Origin: an uncultured Chloroflexia bacterium
GTDB lineage: Bacteria > Chloroflexota > Limnocylindria > QHBO01
Length of the DNA stretch: 64,000 nucleotides
NCBI GenBank assembly: GCA_963814375.1
Contig: CAWFCQ010000007.1
Coordinates: 283,244-347,243 of the forward strand
Reading direction: 5' to 3'
A model generated the notes under the pieces. It was not told where the DNA came from. It did not search any database and worked only from the letters and a program-made list of their open reading frames with translations. Positions 1-9,954 of the stretch are shown here, in pieces. Numbering within the stretch: position 1 is the stretch's first letter; each line of letters opens with the position of its first letter. The position numbers were made by a program, and so were the translations under genes.

Positions 1-177
1 GCGGGCGGCACCCACGATCCCGAGCAGGACCGGTGAGCTGCTCTCGGCGTAGACGACCACGAGGACGGCGACGAGGTAGAGCCAATCGCCGATGCCGGAG
101 ATGAACTCGCCGATCAGCAGGCGCGCCAGCGCGCCGTTGCGGCGGAAGAGGTCGATGTAGGTCCCGAAGAGGCTCAC
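1..177 (-). CDS. MFS transporter, N-terminal part (runs off window)
   Basis: Manual translation from GTG at 177: MSLFGTYIDLFRRNGALARLLIGEFISGIGDWLYLVAVLVVVYAESSSPVLLGIVGAAR, typical MFS TM1/TM2; GTGA overlap with the S8 stop codon. Confidence 0.8.
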   Translation of the reverse strand, partial: MSLFGTYIDLFRRNGALARLLIGEFISGIGDWLYLVAVLVVVYAESSSPVLLGIVGAAR

Positions 178-1022
178 TCCGCCGAGCCGGCCCGGTGGCG
201 CCACGGATGTCGGCGGCCCGGATTGTCGGCCACGCTGGTCAGCACCGCCTTGACCTCGAACGGGCTGAGGCCGGGATGCTTCGAGAGGATCAGGGCCACC
301 AGGCCCGCGATGTGCGGCGCCGCGAAGCTATTGCCCGTGGCCACCGTCGAGCCGCCATCCTTCCAGGCGATCGGGACGTCCACCCCCCAGGCGCCGAACT
401 CGACCGGAGGGGACGGGTTGTAGTAGATCCGCCACGGATCGGGCTCGGGATGGGCGGCAACCGAGAAGACCGATGAGAAGAGCGATGGATAGCTCGGCGC
501 CGGCACGTTGTTCGCGGCGCTGACCAGGGCCATCGACTGGAAGTAGGCGCGATCGGCCAGATCGTGGAAGACCGGATACAGCGACTCGCTCTTCGAGGAG
601 AGACTTAGGTTGCAGACCTCGAGCCCCTGCTCGATCGCCCACTCCAGCCCCGCCGCGAAGGCCGTCCCCTTGCCGCGCAGGTCGGCGCCGAGGACGCGGA
701 TCGAGACCAGCTCGACCTCCGGCGCCATCGACAGGATGATGCCGCCGCACGCCGTGCCGTGGCCGAACATGTCGACGCCCTCGTCGGGAACGACGACGGG
801 CCCATCGTCGGTCATCTCGACGGTGACGTTCTGGACGACGCGGCCGGCGAGACGTGGGTGGTCGTTCTCGAGCCCCGAGTCGATGATCCCGACCCGCACC
901 CCGGCCCCCGTCGCGCCGCCCCAGGCCCAGTCGCGCGTGAGGCCGCGCAGGCGAAGCCGCCGACGCAGCTCGCGACGGGGATTGGCGAACGGCTCAGACC
1001 ATGCCGGCAGCTCCGGCGTCAT
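174..1022 (-). CDS. S8 (subtilisin-family) serine peptidase, minimal, no signal peptide
   Basis: Triad motifs GIIDSG, GHGTACG, TGNSFAAPH; oxyanion SAANN. Confidence 0.92.
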   Translation of the reverse strand: MTPELPAWSEPFANPRRELRRRLRLRGLTRDWAWGGATGAGVRVGIIDSGLENDHPRLAGRVVQNVTVEMTDDGPVVVPDEGVDMFGHGTACGGIILSMAPEVELVSIRVLGADLRGKGTAFAAGLEWAIEQGLEVCNLSLSSKSESLYPVFHDLADRAYFQSMALVSAANNVPAPSYPSLFSSVFSVAAHPEPDPWRIYYNPSPPVEFGAWGVDVPIAWKDGGSTVATGNSFAAPHIAGLVALILSKHPGLSPFEVKAVLTSVADNPGRRHPWRHRAGSAE

Positions 1023-1798
1023 CGGCGCATGGAGCTGCGCTGGCCACGCTCAGCATGACCGGCGACGACCTCGAGAATATCGGCCACCAGGTCGAGCTCC
1101 CGGTCGCTGAGCCCGCGGAGCCGCGCGACCTGGTCGACGAGCCGCCAGAAGGGCGCATCCTCGTCAGCGTCGAGGCCCGCCGTCGCCGTCGAGACCGCCG
1201 CCTCGACCTCGGCATCGGTCAGCTCGCCGCCGAGCTCGCGAAGCACGGTGCCGATCAGCCGCGTCGTGTCGCGTTGCACCTTGGCCGCCCCGATGGCAAC
1301 CGTTGCCTGGCCGGCGAAGACGCCGAGCAGCTCCATGTCTCGCAGCGAGAAGGTGGCCGATGAATGCTTGTCGAGGACCTGGAGGACGCCGACCACGGCG
1401 TCCTCGCCGGTCAGTGGCGCAGCGGCGATCGAGCGCGGGACATAGCCCGTCTGCTCGGCGGCGTCGCGATTGAAACGTGGATCGCTGGCGACGTCCGAGA
1501 GGGCGAGTGCCTGACCGGTGGAATACACGAAGCCAACGATGCCCTGCGTGGGCGGCACAGAGAGGCCGATCGCGCCCGCGCCCTTCTCACCGGCGGCGAC
1601 GCGAAAAACGAGCCGGTCCGGATCCGGCTCGAAAAGAGCGATGGAGGCGGCCTCGGCATCGAAGAGGCGCACCGTGGCGTCGACGATGCTCTGGAGAAGC
1701 CTCGTCTCGATGTCGCCCTGGAGCCGCCGACCGACGGCGGAACGCCGCGACGCCGCAACGAGTGCGGCGATCGCGGCATCCACCGGAGGGTCTGCCAC
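1019..1798 (-). CDS. Stand-alone GAF domain protein
   Basis: ASIALFE..LVFRVAAG, GIVGFV, DVASDPRFN, SIAAAPL..VGVLQVLDK..FSLRDMELL; ATGA overlap with S8 gene. Confidence 0.88.
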   Translation of the reverse strand: MADPPVDAAIAALVAASRRSAVGRRLQGDIETRLLQSIVDATVRLFDAEAASIALFEPDPDRLVFRVAAGEKGAGAIGLSVPPTQGIVGFVYSTGQALALSDVASDPRFNRDAAEQTGYVPRSIAAAPLTGEDAVVGVLQVLDKHSSATFSLRDMELLGVFAGQATVAIGAAKVQRDTTRLIGTVLRELGGELTDAEVEAAVSTATAGLDADEDAPFWRLVDQVARLRGLSDRELDLVADILEVVAGHAERGQRSSMRR

Positions 1799-1814
1799 CG
1801 GCGTGGCTACCGGT

Positions 1815-2259
1815 TCAGCGCTTCAGGGTCCCGTGACCCTCGGTGTCGTCTTCCTCGGCGCGGCGGCTCAGCCCGCCGATGTGGCCCTCAACGTCGTCCT
1901 CGTCGGCACGCTTGAGGACGCCGTGGCCCTCCGTGTCGTCCCTCAGCGCGCTTGAGCACGCCGTGACCCTCGACGTCGTCTTCGTCGGCACGCTTGAGGA
2001 CGCCGTGGCCCTCCGTGTCGTCCTCGTCAGCGCGCTTGAGCACGCCGTGACCCTCTGTGTCGTCCTCATCGGCGCGCTTGAGCACGCCGTGACCCTCGGT
2101 GTCGTCGTCAGTCGCGCGGAAGCCCGACTGACCGCCTTCCTGGATTCTCTCGTCGTCCATCATGTGACCCTCCACTGAATCGTCATCGTGTGCCTCCCCG
2201 CCGAGCGAACCCGGTCGGGAGAAGCCCTCCATCGGCGGACGCCGCCGGTAGTTGTCCAT
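1815..2259 (-). CDS. Tandem DD[T/V]EGH-repeat peptide precursor (frameshift near 1942)
   Basis: AGGAGG RBS upstream of ATG 2259; ORFs 1888..2259 and 1815..2069 join across one extra G, giving 7 DDxEGH units plus one degenerate unit, ending GTLKR-stop. Confidence 0.8.
1818..2110. repeat. ~42-bp tandem coding repeat, 7 units
   Basis: Unit on minus strand gac gac ac(c/a/g) gag gg(t/c) cac ggc gt(g/c) ctc aag cg(c/t) gc(c/t) ga(t/c) ga(g/a); differences mostly at third codon positions. Confidence 0.92.
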
Positions 2260-2359
2260 GCGATCCTTCGCCTCCTAGCTGGCAGCGTACTCGCATCCAA
2301 TGTCACGAATCCTAGGCCCGGTGATGACTTTCGCAGCATCGCTGACCGGACAGATCCGA

Positions 2360-2375
2360 TGTCGGTTACGCGACA
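2360..2375. promoter_or_regulatory. Candidate Crp-type operator TGTCG-N6-CGACA
   Basis: Perfect half-site palindrome with CRP 5-6-5 geometry between the crp-like gene and the precursor. Confidence 0.4.
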
Positions 2376-2379
2376 GTGT

Positions 2380-3075
2380 TCACCGCGCTCCGTGCCGCTC
2401 GAGCTCCGCGAGATCGTGGATCACGAGCGTGTCACGTTCGATGCTGATGAGTCCGTCGTCGACCAAACCGCTCAGAAGCTTGTTCACGCTCTGGCGCGTT
2501 CCGCCGATCATGGCGGCCAGGTCGGACTGAGTGTAGGGCCAGTCGAGCTCGACCCGGCCGGTGGCCTGCGGCGAGGCGTCCCGAGCCACGCGCACGAGGC
2601 GCATCGAGAGGCGGCCCGCAAGGTCCAGGAAGTGCAGCTCCTCGACGTGACCGGTGAGGCGCCGCAGCTCCTCTGCCAGGGCGTGGAGGAGGGCGGTCAC
2701 GAGATGCGGATCATCCCTGAGCAGGTTGAGGAACGGCTCGCGCGGCAGGGCCAACGTCTCGGTCGGCTCGATCGCCGTAGCCGTGGTTGACCTGGGCGAG
2801 CTGTCGAGCAGCGCGAGCTCGCCGAAGAAGTCCCCCGGCTTGAGGCTGGCGATGATCGCCTCCTCGCCCTCCGTCGACGGCAGGACGATCTTGACGCCGC
2901 CGGCCGCCACCACCTGGAGCGAATCGCCGATGTCACCCTGGTGGAAGATCACCTCGTTGCGCCGGAAGCGCCGCCTGCGCATCTGCGCCGCGATCGCGCG
3001 GAGGGCCTCGTCGGTGACGTGCGCAAAGAGGGCGCACCGCCGAAGGCTGTCGACCGCCAGGGATTCGTCCAGCAC
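2380..3075 (-). CDS. Crp/Fnr family transcriptional regulator
   Basis: cNMP domain (IFHQGD, GDFFGELALLD..PRSTTA) plus C-terminal HTH TQSDLAAMIGGTRQSVNKLL. Confidence 0.95.
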   Translation of the reverse strand: MLDESLAVDSLRRCALFAHVTDEALRAIAAQMRRRRFRRNEVIFHQGDIGDSLQVVAAGGVKIVLPSTEGEEAIIASLKPGDFFGELALLDSSPRSTTATAIEPTETLALPREPFLNLLRDDPHLVTALLHALAEELRRLTGHVEELHFLDLAGRLSMRLVRVARDASPQATGRVELDWPYTQSDLAAMIGGTRQSVNKLLSGLVDDGLISIERDTLVIHDLAELERHGAR

Positions 3076-3702: not shown

Positions 3703-3778
3703 GCGGGAGTAGCTCAGCTGGCAGAGCGCGACCTTCCCAAGGTTGAGGCCGCGGGTTCGATCCCCGTCTCCCGCTCCA
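3703..3778 (+). tRNA. tRNA-Gly(CCC)
   Basis: GCGGGAG/CTCCCGC acceptor, anticodon loop TTCCCAA, GGTTCGATCC T-arm, encoded CCA; TAGAAT -10 upstream. Confidence 0.97.
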
Positions 3779-5356: not shown

Positions 5357-5905
5357 ATGAGCACCCCCTCCACGGAAGCCGCGTGGTCGGTCCGGCCCGA
5401 GCAGCCGATCGATCTCGACCAGATCCACGAGCTCCATCGGACCGCCTTCAACGGCCCTGCCGAGGCTGACCTCGTCGACGCCATCCGCCGCGGACCAAAC
5501 TTCATGCCCGAGCTGTCGCTTGTGGCCGTCGCGCCTGACGCGAGCGTCCTGGGCCACGTGCTCATCAGCCGGATCGCTTTCGCACCGGCCGATGCGGATG
5601 CGGAGAGGACCGATGCGCTCGCTCTGGCGCCGCTGGCCGTCCTTCCGCCGTACTGGGGCCGCGGCATCGGCTCTGCGCTCGTGCGCCTGGCCCTTGGCGT
5701 CGCCGATGAGAGGGCGGAGCCGCTCGTCGCCGTTATCGGCGCGCCCTCGTACTACGCCCGATTCGGGTTCCTGCCGGCGGCCGAGCACGGTGTTGGCGGC
5801 CAGTACGGCGATGCGGGCGATGCCTTCCAGGTCCGGCTCCTCCCGGGCCATTCGGCGCCAGGTGAGGGGTCGCTCATCTACCCGTCGATGTTCGAGGGCC
5901 TCTAG
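5357..5905 (+). CDS. GNAT N-acetyltransferase (YhbS-like)
   Basis: LAPLAVLPPYWGRGIGSAL, G.PSYYARFGF. Confidence 0.9.
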   Translation: MSTPSTEAAWSVRPEQPIDLDQIHELHRTAFNGPAEADLVDAIRRGPNFMPELSLVAVAPDASVLGHVLISRIAFAPADADAERTDALALAPLAVLPPYWGRGIGSALVRLALGVADERAEPLVAVIGAPSYYARFGFLPAAEHGVGGQYGDAGDAFQVRLLPGHSAPGEGSLIYPSMFEGL

Positions 5906-6519
5906 TCATCGTCATCGGAGCGACCGGAGCCGCTCCCGCTCGATCCGCTGCCGCCCGAGTCATCACCGCCGCCCGGGCCGCTGTTGTCGTCACCGCCTCC
6001 GCCAGGCCCGCTGTTGTCCGACTCGCTCGGCTCCGGCGTCTCGATCCCGTCATCGTCATCGGATGCCGAGGGCGTGGCGGAGGGTGACCCGGTGGGAGTT
6101 GGCGACGGCGATGCGGATTCGGAAGGGCTCGGCGATGGCGTCGCGGATTCGGAGGGGCTCGGTGAGGGCGACGGAGTGACCACGGTGGGCGGACTCGGCG
6201 TGGTTCCCACATTGCCGTTGCGGGCGAGGTCGGCGAGCTGACCCAGGGCGAGGGCCCCCACGACCGCCACCGCGACAACCGCCGTGGCGGCCATCGCCCG
6301 GGCCGGCGCGTGCCACGCAACCCAACCGGCGGTGAGGGACGCCCACCACCCGAGCGCGGGAGTGGGTTCCGCATCGATCGCCGCATGGATGCGGCCGGCG
6401 AGATCGAGCGGGGGCGCATCGGCTCGTTCGGCGCTGTACCGCTCCAGCCGCCCTGCGACCTCGTCGAGGGAAGCTTCGGCGCGGTCGAGCTCATCCGGCC
6501 CGAACGGGTGTCGGGTCAT
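5902..6519 (-). CDS. Putative anti-sigma membrane protein with SP-rich linker and DNSGPG tail
   Basis: ATGA-coupled to ECF sigma; short cytoplasmic N-terminus, one TM helix, low-complexity C-terminus. Confidence 0.7.
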   Translation of the reverse strand: MTRHPFGPDELDRAEASLDEVAGRLERYSAERADAPPLDLAGRIHAAIDAEPTPALGWWASLTAGWVAWHAPARAMAATAVVAVAVVGALALGQLADLARNGNVGTTPSPPTVVTPSPSPSPSESATPSPSPSESASPSPTPTGSPSATPSASDDDDGIETPEPSESDNSGPGGGGDDNSGPGGGDDSGGSGSSGSGSGRSDDDD

Positions 6520-7061
6520 TGGCTCGCACTCCGCGTTCCGAGGACCGGGCGCAGACGCTCCAGGCCCCGTCGCAGGTGGGTCTTGACGGTGTTGATCGGC
6601 CGTCCCGTGGCTTCCGCGACCTCCGCGAGCGAGAGCTCGCCGAAGAATCGCAGCGCGACCACCTCCCGATAGGGATCAGGGAGTGCGGCGACCGCGTCGC
6701 GCACCTCGTCACGCTGTTCGGCGGCCTCGGCGGCGCGGCTCGGATCGACGGTCGGGTCGGCAGTCATCGGCTCGGCCACCGCGTCCAGGTCGGCCGTCGG
6801 CCGGCGCTGAGCGATGCGGCGGTAGGCCTGGCGCGTGGCGATCCGCAGAAGCCACGCACGTATTGGACCCTCGCCGCGGTAGCTGCCGATTGACCGAAAT
6901 GCCGCCACGAATGCCTCCTGCGTCACGTCTTCGGCATCGTGCGAGCGGCCGAGGATCCGGTAGCAGGCGCGATAGACAGCAGAGGTCTCGAGGTCCACGA
7001 GCTGGCTGAACGCGTCCCGATCACCTGACCGAACGGCATCGACGAGAGCGCGGTCGTCCAC
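6516..7061 (-). CDS. ECF RNA polymerase sigma factor
   Basis: DAEDVTQEAF, WLLRIA (region 2); REVVALRFF..LSLAEVA..INTVKTHLRRG (region 4). Confidence 0.93.
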   Translation of the reverse strand: MDDRALVDAVRSGDRDAFSQLVDLETSAVYRACYRILGRSHDAEDVTQEAFVAAFRSIGSYRGEGPIRAWLLRIATRQAYRRIAQRRPTADLDAVAEPMTADPTVDPSRAAEAAEQRDEVRDAVAALPDPYREVVALRFFGELSLAEVAEATGRPINTVKTHLRRGLERLRPVLGTRSASQ

Positions 7062-7109
7062 GCCCTCATCGTGCCACGATGTCCCCCACATCCGGGCCGA
7101 CACCTCGAT

Positions 7110-7685
7110 TCAGTCGTCGTGGCCGGAGTTGTCATCGTCGTCGTCGCCGTTGCCGGGACCCGAGTTGTCGTCGTCATCGTCGTCGTCGCCGTTGCCGGGA
7201 CCCGAGTTGTCGTCGTCATCGTCGTCGTCGCCGTTGCCGGGACCCGAGTTGTCGTCACCGTCGTCGCCGTCGTCATCGGCGGAAGCGGTCGGGTCAGAGC
7301 TGGCGGACGCGCTGGCGGAGGCGGAGGCCGATGCGCTGGCGGAGGCGGAGGCCGATGCGCTGGCGGCCGGGCTGGCCGGACCATCGTCGTTCCCGGTGTT
7401 GTTCCCGCCGTTGTCATCGGCGGAAGCGGTCGGGTCAGGGCTGGCCGACGCGCTGGCGGAGGCGCTCGCCGACGGTGACGGCGAGGCCGAGATGCTTGCG
7501 CCGAACGTCTCGAGTCCGGCGGTGGCCGATGGCGACGCATCCGTGTTCGTCCCGGTCTCGCCGTCGCGGTCGTTGCCCGTCGCCAGCACGACGCCGGCCA
7601 TGAGCAGGAGGGCGCCCACGGCGAGGATGAGGCCGCGGAACGTGGTGTTGATGTTCACGATGGTCGAGCTCCCACTGGTGTTCAT
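7110..7685 (-). CDS. Secreted acidic low-complexity protein with (SA)n and DDNSGPGNG repeats
   Basis: Hydrophobic signal-like N-terminus; three 39-bp DNA repeats; start uncertain. Confidence 0.7.
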   Translation of the reverse strand: MNTSGSSTIVNINTTFRGLILAVGALLLMAGVVLATGNDRDGETGTNTDASPSATAGLETFGASISASPSPSASASASASASPDPTASADDNGGNNTGNDDGPASPAASASASASASASASASASASASSDPTASADDDGDDGDDNSGPGNGDDDDDDDNSGPGNGDDDDDDDNSGPGNGDDDDDNSGHDD

Positions 7686-7790: not shown

Positions 7791-9170
7791 ATGGGTCATC
7801 GCGTCCGCTGTCCAGGGGAGCTCCATCTCGTGGCCCGACCTCGTGCTCGAACTCGCGCAATCTCGCACGCGGGCAAGCGTCGCCTCGGATCCGTCGTTTT
7901 TCTCACGGCGCTGACGCTGGCCGCGATCGGGGCCGCACCCAGAGCGGCCGCGGGTGCCACGGATCGGCTGCCGGACCTGCGCATGACGCCGGTCAAGGAC
8001 ATCCGCATCGTCGTCGAGGGCGGCCACCGTCGCCTGCGGTTCACGGCCATGATGGCCAACGTCGGCCAAGGCCACTTCGAGGTCCGCGGCAGTCGCAGCG
8101 GCGCCTCGGATCCGACAATGTCCATCAGCCAGGTGCTCTACAACAGCGCCGGCGGCTCCCGAACCATCGCCACGAACGCCTGGGGCCAATATGCCGGCGA
8201 CGGCCACGACCACTGGCACGTGCAGCAGATGATGAGCTACGGGCTATGGCCGGTCGGCAGCGGAACGTCGATCTCCCGTGGCGCGAAGGTCGGCTTCTGC
8301 TTCCTCGACACCAATGCCTGGAATCTCTCGCTGCCCGGCGCTCGACAGTCGTCGTACTACCGGGAGTCCTGGTGTGGCACACAGGCATCGACGACCAACC
8401 GCGTCGGGATCAGCCTCGGCTGGGCTGACAGCTACCCGTGGAGCTTCGCCTACCAGTGGGTCGACATCACCGGGCTCCCGGCCGGCGAGTACTACCTGCG
8501 CTCAATCGTGGATGAGTCGGACTACTTCGTGGAGACGAGCGATTCGAACAATTGCGCGTGGAATCGGATTCGCATCCCGGCGTCGGGCTCGAGCGTGACC
8601 TTGATCGGCAGCGGATCGAGCTGCATTGGCCCGACCAGCGCGGTCGCATTTCCCGGCCAGATCAGGTACGCAACCCCGCGTCGCGTGACCTTCGCTGCCG
8701 GCGAGCACGTCGGTCACCGCTTCAACACATCGGGCGTCACCACGAGCCGGTTCCCGGCCACGCTGGCCCGCGCCTCGAGCGCGTACGCGACGTTCTCCTC
8801 GACGATTCCGGGCAGGGCGGGCCGGTGGTTCTACATCAGCAACGGGCTCTGGGCCGGCTCGTGGATGCAGGAGTCGGCGAGGGTGGTCGGCGCGCCTCTA
8901 CCGGCCAACGCGGACGCATTCCCGAACACCGATCCGACGGCGTCGACCGCACGCGTCGAGCTCGCGGCAGGGAACCAGTATGGCTATCAGTTCACCGCGG
9001 CCGGCGCAACGATCGCGGCGAAATGGGCCAAGCTGGGAGCGCCTTCCGGAGCGCGCGTCGACCAACGGGGCTTCCTGCCCGGCAGATCCGGCCGATGGGT
9101 CCACGTCATCAACGGCACCTGGGCGGACTACTGGTTCCTCGAGTCCGCGACCGCTGTCTTCAACCCCTAG
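7791..9170 (+). CDS. Secreted lysyl oxidase family protein with two C-terminal repeats
   Basis: HDHWH Cu motif, AKVGFCFLDT, GISLGWADSY..QWVDITGLP.GEYYL..VD..ETSDSNN; start uncertain. Confidence 0.85.
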   Translation: MGHRVRCPGELHLVARPRARTRAISHAGKRRLGSVVFLTALTLAAIGAAPRAAAGATDRLPDLRMTPVKDIRIVVEGGHRRLRFTAMMANVGQGHFEVRGSRSGASDPTMSISQVLYNSAGGSRTIATNAWGQYAGDGHDHWHVQQMMSYGLWPVGSGTSISRGAKVGFCFLDTNAWNLSLPGARQSSYYRESWCGTQASTTNRVGISLGWADSYPWSFAYQWVDITGLPAGEYYLRSIVDESDYFVETSDSNNCAWNRIRIPASGSSVTLIGSGSSCIGPTSAVAFPGQIRYATPRRVTFAAGEHVGHRFNTSGVTTSRFPATLARASSAYATFSSTIPGRAGRWFYISNGLWAGSWMQESARVVGAPLPANADAFPNTDPTASTARVELAAGNQYGYQFTAAGATIAAKWAKLGAPSGARVDQRGFLPGRSGRWVHVINGTWADYWFLESATAVFNP

Positions 9171-9504: not shown

Positions 9505-9954
9505 CTAGTGGTCCTCCTCGAGGGTCGCCATCACCGACAGCTCGACGTTGCCCGCGAGCGCCCGCGAGATCGGGCAGCCGTCCTTTGCGGCCGCCGCCGC
9601 CGCCTCGAAAGCCGCCTCGTCGATACCGGGCACGGTGCCGACCACGTCGAGCTCAGACCGTGTCACTGTCCAGCTGTCGCCAACCTTGTCGAATGTGACG
9701 GTGGCGGAGACGTGGACGTGGTCCGGCGGCGTACCCGCCCGGGCAAGGCCGTTCGAGAGCGCCATCGAGAAGCACGACGCATGGGCTGCTGCAAGAAGCT
9801 CCTCGGGCGAGGTCTGCCCGCGAGGCCCCTCGGTGCGCGTGGACCAGGAGATCGGCAGATCGGTGAACAGCTCGCTCGTCCCGGCGGTGACCGTCCCGGA
9901 GCCTTCGAGAAGCGAGCCGGAATAGGTCACGGTGGCGGTTCGGCTGGCGGACAT
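9505..9954 (-). CDS. osmC: OsmC family peroxiredoxin
   Basis: SPEELLAAAHASCFSMALS and GCPISRAL; AAGGAG RBS. Confidence 0.92.
   Translation of the reverse strand: MSASRTATVTYSGSLLEGSGTVTAGTSELFTDLPISWSTRTEGPRGQTSPEELLAAAHASCFSMALSNGLARAGTPPDHVHVSATVTFDKVGDSWTVTRSELDVVGTVPGIDEAAFEAAAAAAKDGCPISRALAGNVELSVMATLEEDH

Follow-up and report, generated by a model that had tools for sequence, protein, structure and literature searches.

A five-gene module joining a repeat peptide to cyclic-nucleotide sensors, a subtilase, and a transporter in uncultured Chloroflexota and Actinomycetota

What is the role of a small protein built of near-identical acidic repeats whose gene lies beside genes for a cyclic-nucleotide regulator, a protease, and a pump? 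The question is raised by a 64,000-nucleotide (nt) stretch of DNA from an uncultured Chloroflexia bacterium (here, the window: positions 283244 to 347243 of contig C7 in a source assembly of 2.5 Mb in 8 contigs, 89% complete), whose left end carries a repeat-peptide gene together with genes for a Crp/Fnr-family regulator, a GAF-domain protein, an S8 subtilase, and a transporter of the major facilitator superfamily (MFS). Our comparisons across genomes revealed that these five genes form a module that has been kept together in two phyla. The reading that we favor, tentatively, is that the repeat gene encodes a multi-unit precursor under the control of cyclic nucleotide monophosphates (cNMPs), which would be cut at or near its conserved motif by the S8 protease in partnership with the GAF protein, the pieces then being exported by the MFS transporter.

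A five-gene module kept together in two phyla

The minus strand carries every module gene of the window, and the first gene in the direction of reading encodes the Crp/Fnr-family regulator (positions 2380 to 3075; 231 amino acids, aa), for which Pfam cNMP_binding (1.3e-25) and HTH_Crp_2 (1.5e-14) both score above their cut-offs. A 120-nt spacer separates it from the repeat open reading frame (ORF), and the stop codon of the repeat peptide is followed after 16 nt by the GAF gene (1019 to 1798; 259 aa; Pfam GAF, 3e-18, 67 bits versus a cut-off of 22.4), with a GAF domain at residues 33 to 169 and a helical C-terminal extension of about 85 aa. The S8 gene (174 to 1022; 282 aa; Pfam Peptidase_S8, 5.8e-26) encodes a catalytic domain only, without signal peptide or prodomain, and the MFS gene begins at the edge of the window (1 to 204) and continues to the left of it. 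The full MFS gene (L004:10552-12204) encodes 550 aa, with transporter matches above cut-offs (MFS_1, 3.7e-40, 138 bits; MFS_3, 2.5e-25, 89 bits) and a cNMP-binding domain fused at the C terminus (cNMP_binding, 5e-21, residues 451 to 530; here, MFS-cNMP). Three cyclic-nucleotide sensor domains are combined in the module with a protease and a pump. The GAF, S8, and MFS genes had been described in an initial annotation of the window as joined by 4-nt overlaps; the one between GAF and S8 is present (ATGA at 1022-1019), but that between S8 and MFS (GTGA at 177-174) exists only if the MFS protein starts at its tenth codon, and the overlap is 31 nt if the start is the GTG at 204.

A scan taking one genome per species identified 33 close loci, labeled Limnocylindria (12), "uncultured Chloroflexia" (8), Chloroflexota or Chloroflexi (7), or otherwise (6). 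By tblastn with the window proteins, Crp lay by the peptide gene in all 33; GAF was found in 28 of 28 contigs continuing past the peptide, S8 in 27 of 27 and MFS-cNMP in 26 of 26 contigs reaching that far, and a homolog of an M28 peptidase, at varying distance, in 9 of the 33. Because all 33 loci are close kin, their linkage alone shows little. Modules 74 to 92% identical to Limnocylindria ones also occurred in metagenome-assembled genomes (MAGs) labeled Steroidobacteraceae, Acidimicrobiales, Binatia, and Angelobacter (L017, L020, L021, L027, L030, and L035); these contigs are probably mis-binned.

The linkage was also seen at greater distance. Fifteen of 401 sampled Chloroflexota genomes matched the peptide profile, and 11 of the more distant loci were fetched: Crp was kept in all 11, S8 together with GAF in 10, and MFS-cNMP in 8, with S8 identity to the window protein down to 50% and with gene order and strands rearranged (peptide-Crp-GAF-S8 in L065; S8-GAF, a divergent MFS gene, and then Crp-peptide in L069). 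The exception, L070, is a 7.5-kb contig, and the S8 gene of its genome lies on another contig. The peptides of these distant loci are without the N-terminal region of the window protein. The S8 subfamily itself occurred in 46 of the 401 genomes (one of the 46 unpublished), and all 15 peptide-positive genomes fall within those 46.

A second sample of 401 genomes was drawn from the phylum of a MAG titled Acidimicrobiales, an Actinomycetota order by NCBI taxonomy. Eleven genomes matched, the starting genome included; 3 unpublished genomes were left out, and 8 loci were fetched. In 6 of these 8, a repeat peptide is surrounded by S8 (49 to 56% identity), GAF, MFS-cNMP, and Crp, and the other 2, without partner genes, are weak matches to other repeat proteins. 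Wherever GAF and S8 genes were both seen (64 loci, the window among them), they lay side by side. The linkage of homologous repeat peptides to S8 and GAF genes, the lack of which the initial annotation had named as refuting its proposal, held across two phyla and through gene rearrangements.

Units, motif, and probable operator of the repeat peptide

In the window, the repeat ORF opens with an ATG at 2259 and runs for 106 residues to 1942 in one frame; the next frame takes over at 1940 and adds 41 residues before a stop codon at 1817-1815. By translation, the first frame (1942 to 2259) encodes a conserved N-terminal region with the first VEGH motif, followed by four DD[TV]EGH-GVLKR units, and the second (1815 to 1940) encodes three further units, GVLKR, IGGLSRR, and GTLKR; between them, at 1941, lies a frame break in the fourth unit, which has 40 nt where 42 are expected. 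Once joined, the two frames encode eight EGH motifs and seven units closed by KR or RR, as had been read at the outset. Tandem Repeats Finder returned a period of 42 (6.8 copies, score 310) and a higher-order period of 84 (89% matches, score 362), and the anchor GAGGG[TC]CAC recurs at spacings of 75, 42, 42, 42, 40, 42, and 48 nt. The earlier impression that the units differ mostly by synonymous changes agrees with our counts for the window: in the variable part all 5 changes are synonymous (0 nonsynonymous), and in the motif 1 is nonsynonymous and 3 are synonymous. Judged by reading the sequence, the peptide is without a hydrophobic N-terminal stretch. The ORF had no Pfam match, and the peptide was found in none of the curated protein libraries scanned (Pfam, NCBIfam, and PADLOC).

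One search returned 252 relatives of the window peptide at E <= 0.01, each of them either without a name or "hypothetical"; the few rows that were named are from MAGs of Chloroflexota or Candidatus Limnocylindria and from a single soil metagenome. When a profile was run against 1.84 billion representatives, 334 matched at E <= 0.001, and a search started from a distant member, P0164, gave 4 matches, none of them named. Family members had no Pfam or NCBIfam match, and a protein atlas held look-alike clusters without a Pfam family in Chloroflexota and Actinomycetota. Members carry one to nine [DE][DE][TVA]EG[HQ] motifs; after each comes a variable stretch, with a length between 3 and over 25 residues, and then an acidic run. 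The DDxEGH block, described from the window as near-invariant, stands as a motif, but its His is Gln in four second-phylum loci (L089, L090, L092, and L093); in L106 and L107 its Glu is Ser. The dibasic unit end, present in all seven window units as KR or RR, does not carry over as the family rule, which is one K or R: the commonest pattern is a single basic residue followed by one to three small residues, and among the 813 distinct stretches that separate motifs in 265 proteins, a K or R occurs in 805. In 192 of these 265 proteins the chain ends 4 to 6 residues past the last motif, mostly on K or R, so that the repeat protein stops at an apparent unit boundary. The N-terminal region of the window protein is common in its own family and absent in many relatives.

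Variants of the family were also encountered. One sub-family (P0152, P0169, P0177, and L066:7817-8206) does not stop after a short basic stretch but has, past the last motif, a conserved and helical-looking tail, about 40 residues long and with many R, E, and Q. In P0172 (381 aa), the end of a cNMP-binding domain is joined to a DDAEGH repeat peptide in one gene call, probably a read-through of two neighboring genes in another lineage. L094 holds two small NETVAEDTEGH-type repeat genes (8031-8267 and 9714-9947) and no module genes in the fetched 10-kb stretch; these may be an unrelated or unlinked repeat family. A second unnamed family, with no Pfam match, carries two or three copies of D[TV][EQ]GH, each followed by a strand-like stretch, together with one membrane helix and a low-complexity tail. 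Two of these membrane-anchored proteins are encoded in the source genome (contig C4, L058:1399-2370, plus strand; contig C6, L060:1126-1779, minus strand), and genes of this kind lie beside S8 in six other genomes (L062:4999-5769, L063:5321-5971, L097:7225-7959, L098:3061-3582, L106:5699-6322, and L108:7385-8116).

Since the repeat protein is highly charged, of low complexity, and rich in His, Asp, and Glu, it might be an uncut, disordered protein that binds metals or other ions through these residues, or that serves in stress, and that is merely coregulated by cNMPs. Likewise, no fold was predicted for the related motif-bearing domain of the membrane proteins, the model of which (from an 8-row alignment) had a mean predicted local distance difference test (pLDDT) score of 45.8 and was unusable. 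We regard such a role as very improbable, because the motif His and Glu are replaced in the lineages named above, because metal binding does not require the basic residue found in nearly every stretch, and because the strict linkage to an active protease would be left unexplained. Two narrower candidates were set aside: a copper site of the amino-terminal copper- and nickel-binding (ATCUN) type, formed by a cut before E-G-H, is weakened by the His-to-Gln lineages, and a metal-dependent solenoid resembling RTX proteins is weakened by the spread in variable-stretch lengths.

Substitution patterns are informative about the variable stretch. Among related units of one gene (clusters at >=75% nucleotide identity within the gene), the variable part had 59 nonsynonymous and 79 synonymous changes, a ratio of nonsynonymous to synonymous change (pN/pS) of 0.24, and the motif had 19 and 46 (pN/pS 0.09); the unfiltered count, unrelated units included, was 192 nonsynonymous and 92 synonymous. 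Selection at the protein level therefore keeps the units of a gene similar to one another. Between genomes, S8 proteins 91 to 94% identical to that of the window accompany unrelated variable stretches: GVLKR in the window, INKLRGIA in L015, GRPVLK in L011, and GQLKGQLK in L007. Sameness within a gene combined with replacement between genomes would fit a sequence-specific product or a specificity element, unlike a free linker.

Control by cyclic nucleotides, which had been suggested from gene content, now has a stronger link to the peptide gene than in the first reading, through the fusion of the MFS protein to a cNMP-binding domain and through a conserved Crp-type operator. Twenty of the 34 available upstream regions were aligned, and the palindrome TGTCG-N6-CGACA (2360 to 2375 in the window, minus strand, like the elements that follow) has invariant TGTC and GACA in all 20; 5-N6-5 is the geometry of Crp/Fnr operators, and the palindrome is likely to be a Crp-family operator. 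A third TGTC half-site (2348 to 2352; alignment columns T49, G50, T51, and C52 invariant in the 20 sequences) may start a second, weaker operator 23 nt downstream of the first, and three second-phylum loci (L089, L091, and L093) have two full palindromes 23 nt apart. The hexamer TAGGAT (2309 to 2314), with its TA..AT columns invariant or nearly so, is a candidate -10 box for a promoter of the peptide gene's own, and a ribosome-binding site, AGGAGG (2271 to 2276), lies 11 nt before the ATG in a conserved purine-rich block. A scan for terminators and promoters was empty between the peptide and GAF genes, gave no sigma-70 consensus, and left TAGGAT uncalled. Of 24 distant loci, 15, from both phyla, have a palindrome of the TGTCG-N6-CGACA type in the 250 nt upstream of the peptide start, against a background of 0.02 per 250 nt. 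Perfect sites number 3 in the 2.5-Mb genome versus 3 to 8 in five Markov-2 simulations, a count that neither hints at a large regulon nor proves a local one. On this sequence evidence, the peptide gene looks like a direct target of the module's Crp.

Proposed cleavage and export weighed against other roles

The S8 protein aligns to residues 20 to 250 of mature subtilisin BPN' (E = 2e-25), with only about 35 extra N-terminal residues and, by reading, no hydrophobic leader. D48, H88, and S232, together with the oxyanion Asn (N171/N172), were invariant in 42 of 42 aligned sequences. Related S8 proteins are numerous, one search returning at least 6786 clusters at E <= 1e-40. The best curated models for the protein were QhpE and mycosin, both below their cut-offs; the mycosin model scored 110.2 bits versus a cut-off of 278.75, and no C-terminal hydrophobic stretch was seen on reading the sequence. 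Among solved structures, the GAF protein is nearest to a phosphohydrolase that contains a GAF domain and to the GAF domains found in cNMP phosphodiesterases and in a cyclase; its alignments include those of phosphodiesterase 2A and of a cyclase. This likeness to cNMP-binding GAF domains suggests cAMP or cGMP as a candidate ligand; GAF domains bind many ligands.

Structure prediction bears on whether the two proteins act together. The GAF model had pLDDT values of 86 to 96 over residues 31 to 170 and of 46 to 75 in the C-terminal helices. The predicted GAF-S8 complex scored 0.60 (0.68, 0.56, and 0.60 in separate runs), with 0.01 for the best of three controls; at least 84% of contacts agreed between runs, and partner pLDDT was at least 67. 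The mark for this score is reached by 116 of 157 solved complexes and by 2 of 215 mismatched pairs, and scores of 0.60 or under were those of only 18 of the 157 solved complexes and of both mismatches that passed, so that the verdict was weak support. Because the two genes are adjacent without a break, we take binding of the GAF protein to S8 as likely.

In the mechanism that we consider, a rise in cyclic nucleotide would lead Crp to turn on the peptide promoter, and the GAF protein, bound to S8, would gate or direct the protease. S8 would recognize the acidic [DE][DE][TVA]EG[HQ] block and make one or two cuts per unit; the likeliest site is directly past the K or R that closes the variable stretch, since most family members end exactly there. 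Cutting would yield several copies of a short peptide, which the MFS pump, gated by its own cNMP-binding domain, would export, and in some genomes a lipoprotein M28 aminopeptidase may trim the products afterwards. Both the cleavage of the peptide by S8 and its export by the MFS protein are steps that we infer; the product would likely serve as a strain-specific signal.

The flanks, which were read for 12 kb beyond the window on the left and for 6 kb past the module on the right, bear on whether the peptides are modified. The genes left of position 1, which had been singled out for inspection, proved to be the rest of the MFS gene and, 28 nt after it, a gene for an M28/PA peptidase (464 aa; L004:9129-10523, minus strand) with a lipoprotein-type N terminus, an aminopeptidase that could trim exported peptides. 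Pfam scans of the ORFs in both flanks found no tailoring enzyme there, and specifically no radical-SAM, YcaO, ATP-grasp, lanthionine, or methyltransferase genes. As no modification enzyme is linked to the module, the peptides may be unmodified. The alternative, that the product is a tailored member of the peptides that are synthesized by ribosomes and modified after translation (RiPPs), with S8 acting only as a leader or spacer peptidase and the modifying enzyme encoded elsewhere in the genome, draws on the pairing of a conserved recognition block with a variable core, which is typical of multicore RiPP precursors, and on the availability of Thr, Asp, Glu, and Lys as possible cross-link partners. 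It is improbable, in our view, given the flanks just described; that no modifying enzyme travels with the module in the rearranged loci is a weaker point, as only the five module proteins were searched for there.

Several observations weigh against our favored reading of an exported, protease-cut precursor. MFS pumps usually carry small solutes, and a strongly charged peptide of 14 residues would be an unusual cargo. By alignment to BPN', the S1-pocket positions of S8 are Val and Ser and are not acidic, so that a preference for K or R at P1 is not supported, although this is weak because the alignment has a 6-residue gap there. The window's own copy of the repeat gene is frameshifted. The long N-terminal region, which had been taken as a possible leader, is not a universal one, being missing in many relatives and even in a same-genus genome (L061). 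That membrane-anchored proteins share the motif is as compatible with a general recognition tag as with a precursor. Finally, a converse test was made on 20 fetched genomes out of the 31 that were positive for S8 and missed by the peptide profile: GAF adjoined S8 in 20 of 20 and a repeat peptide was visible in 11, but scans of the other 9, which are more distant (S8 at 50 to 54% identity), showed no repeat peptide, and Crp was not seen in 5 of the 20. The GAF-S8 pair is therefore the oldest core of the module and can exist without a nearby peptide gene.

Several of these points would be accommodated by the main rival reading, in which the system serves regulated intracellular proteolysis. The acidic EG[HQ] motif would then be a recognition tag for GAF-S8, and the repeat protein, cytoplasmic and multivalent, would act as substrate, decoy, or regulator, either being destroyed or titrating the protease as cyclic nucleotide rises, with MFS-cNMP as a separate, coregulated output. 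Such a role would fit the occurrence of the motif two or three times in membrane-anchored proteins, two of them in the source genome and others beside S8, as well as GAF-S8 pairs without a detectable repeat peptide, the lack of export signals in S8 and the peptide (by reading), and the weak predicted support for GAF-S8 binding. We nevertheless hold it to be rather unlikely, because it leaves unexplained the sameness of units within a gene together with their wholesale replacement between relatives, the end of the chain at a unit boundary, and the linkage of an exporter-type MFS protein (MFS_3) through rearrangements in two phyla.

Set beside known systems, the precursor reading follows a logic that resembles, by analogy, that of cyanobactins and of Kex2-processed repeat precursors, while the parts differ: here, a cytoplasmic subtilase without prodomain is accompanied by GAF, Crp, and an MFS-cNMP fusion. 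As in the cyanobactin pathway (PatE, PatA/PatG), one precursor holds several variable cores with conserved flanks, and an S8-family protease is encoded alongside. Unlike that pathway, the module has no macrocyclase or heterocyclase in the flanks read, its motif is unrelated to the known cyanobactin recognition sequences, and its cNMP sensors and MFS pump are not known as parts of cyanobactin clusters; identity with the cyanobactin system was rejected, as the PatA/PatG model TIGR03895 scores S8 at 15.2 bits versus a cut-off of 421.05. In yeast alpha-factor and the fungal Kex2-processed repeat proteins, the ustiloxin type included, tandem short peptides with acidic spacers are cut by a subtilase, and an aminopeptidase can trim the spacers. 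The module likewise has acidic spacers, basic unit ends, a last copy at the stop codon, an encoded subtilase, and, in 9 of the 33 close loci, M28. The fungal systems, however, are eukaryotic and use the secretory pathway and a kexin with a P-domain, whereas the precursor and the 282-aa protease of the module are cytoplasmic, without a P-domain, and the module family usually has a single K or R and not a dibasic pair.

Bacterial comparisons gave partial likenesses. QhpE, the small cytoplasmic subtilase that serves as leader peptidase when quinohemoprotein amine dehydrogenase matures, trimming a ribosomal peptide ahead of export, scores best for S8 among the curated models (5.5e-32), but its 110.9 bits lie below the cut-off of 165, and no QhpC-like, radical-SAM, or ATP-binding cassette (ABC) partners were found in the flanks. 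Bacillus Phr/CSF-type peptides are short, unmodified, released by subtilisin-family proteases, and used as signals; unlike the module peptide, their precursors are Sec-secreted and cut outside the cell, with one core and no cNMP sensors. TIGR03896 (cyc_nuc_ocin), a model from cyanobacterial bacteriocin export, also ties a cNMP-binding domain to the export of a ribosomal peptide, and the module's Crp matches it weakly, at 4.7e-10 and with a score of 39 where the cut-off is 161; the exporters there are of the ABC/C39 type and not an MFS fusion. Graspetides, whose precursors with repeated Thr/Ser and Asp/Glu are encoded beside an ATP-grasp ligase, differ in that no ATP-grasp domain was found in the module flanks. 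The literature abstracts consulted held no description of the motif or module.

Limnocylindria and their relatives are abundant uncultured soil bacteria, and we know of no account of their cell-to-cell chemistry. The module is common and, with five genes, compact. Through it, a large family of small proteins absent from curated libraries can be named and matched with partners open to testing. Should the peptides be released, the system would be a bacterial counterpart of fungal repeat-pheromone logic and also a rare case of cNMP signaling that directly gates both the production and the export of a peptide. A broader view, possible but held with more doubt, is that uncultured soil Chloroflexota and Actinomycetota share a peptide "language," in which a cNMP-switched polyprotein, a sensor-coupled cytoplasmic subtilase, and cNMP-gated MFS release would supply many copies of a short cationic peptide; the variable stretches would be strain-specific pherotypes, and the membrane-anchored motif proteins would be further clients or receptors.

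The frame break and the surroundings of the module

The frame of the window copy had been restored by removing one extra G near 1942. The break is present in the assembly, but the extra G is only one of two equivalent fixes: the fourth unit is 2 nt below the 42-nt period, which is the same as one base above a 39-nt unit. Read as it stands, the gene would encode four units and a 17-residue out-of-frame tail. For this copy alone, the frameshift might be real and the gene a pseudogene or truncated variant; the break is there in the assembly sequence, a deficit of 2 nt is no plain homopolymer slip, and repeat genes are also broken in L029, L062, L066, L090, and L092 beside intact neighbors. We find this unlikely, and probably the break is an assembly error. 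Every broken copy sits in a few-contig assembly or on a very long contig, all copies in loci with DAS or DAT accessions are intact, and the downstream frame still encodes perfect units; moreover, matches to GAF, S8, MFS, or M28 are split in loci of the same record series (CA accessions: L012, L014, L015, L016, and L037), which points to assembly indel errors.

The other broken repeat genes (L029; L062:8040-8486; L066:7817-8228; L090:7663-8430; L092:7882-8440), some of which go out of frame and then back in, stand beside intact Crp, GAF, and S8 genes, and their breaks are either assembly errors concentrated in repeats or real slippage. The window was compared with contigs from four soil sequencing runs, three of DNA and one of RNA; no run contained more than 0.20 of the sampled words, and no listed piece spans 1923 to 1942. 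Contigs of the soil metatranscriptome match 1699 to 1898, 1869 to 1922, 1943 to 1996, and 2099 to 2177 with 0 or 1 differences, a match that carry-over of DNA could also produce. RNA-run depth was far higher over the repeats; as contig depth and repeats cannot rank genes, it was not used.

Beyond the M28 gene, the left flank holds unrelated genes for RsgA, a metallo-beta-lactamase-fold protein, a reductase, and the Suf operon. On the right, past Crp, there is a tRNA-Gly (3703 to 3775, the sole match of an Rfam scan), and next come glyoxalase, Kelch, GNAT, and ECF-sigma genes. PADLOC returned only generic matches to the cNMP domains and the subtilase, and no defense system was indicated. The ECF sigma gene (6516 to 7103) is flanked by genes for low-complexity repeat proteins rich in Asp, Ser, and Pro (5902 to 6519 and 7110 to 7685, both on the minus strand), with no Pfam match; one of the two, with a membrane helix, is a possible anti-sigma factor. 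Farther on, positions 7791 to 9170 (plus strand) encode a 459-aa protein with a lysyl-oxidase domain (1.2e-11), a domain that is uncommon in bacteria.

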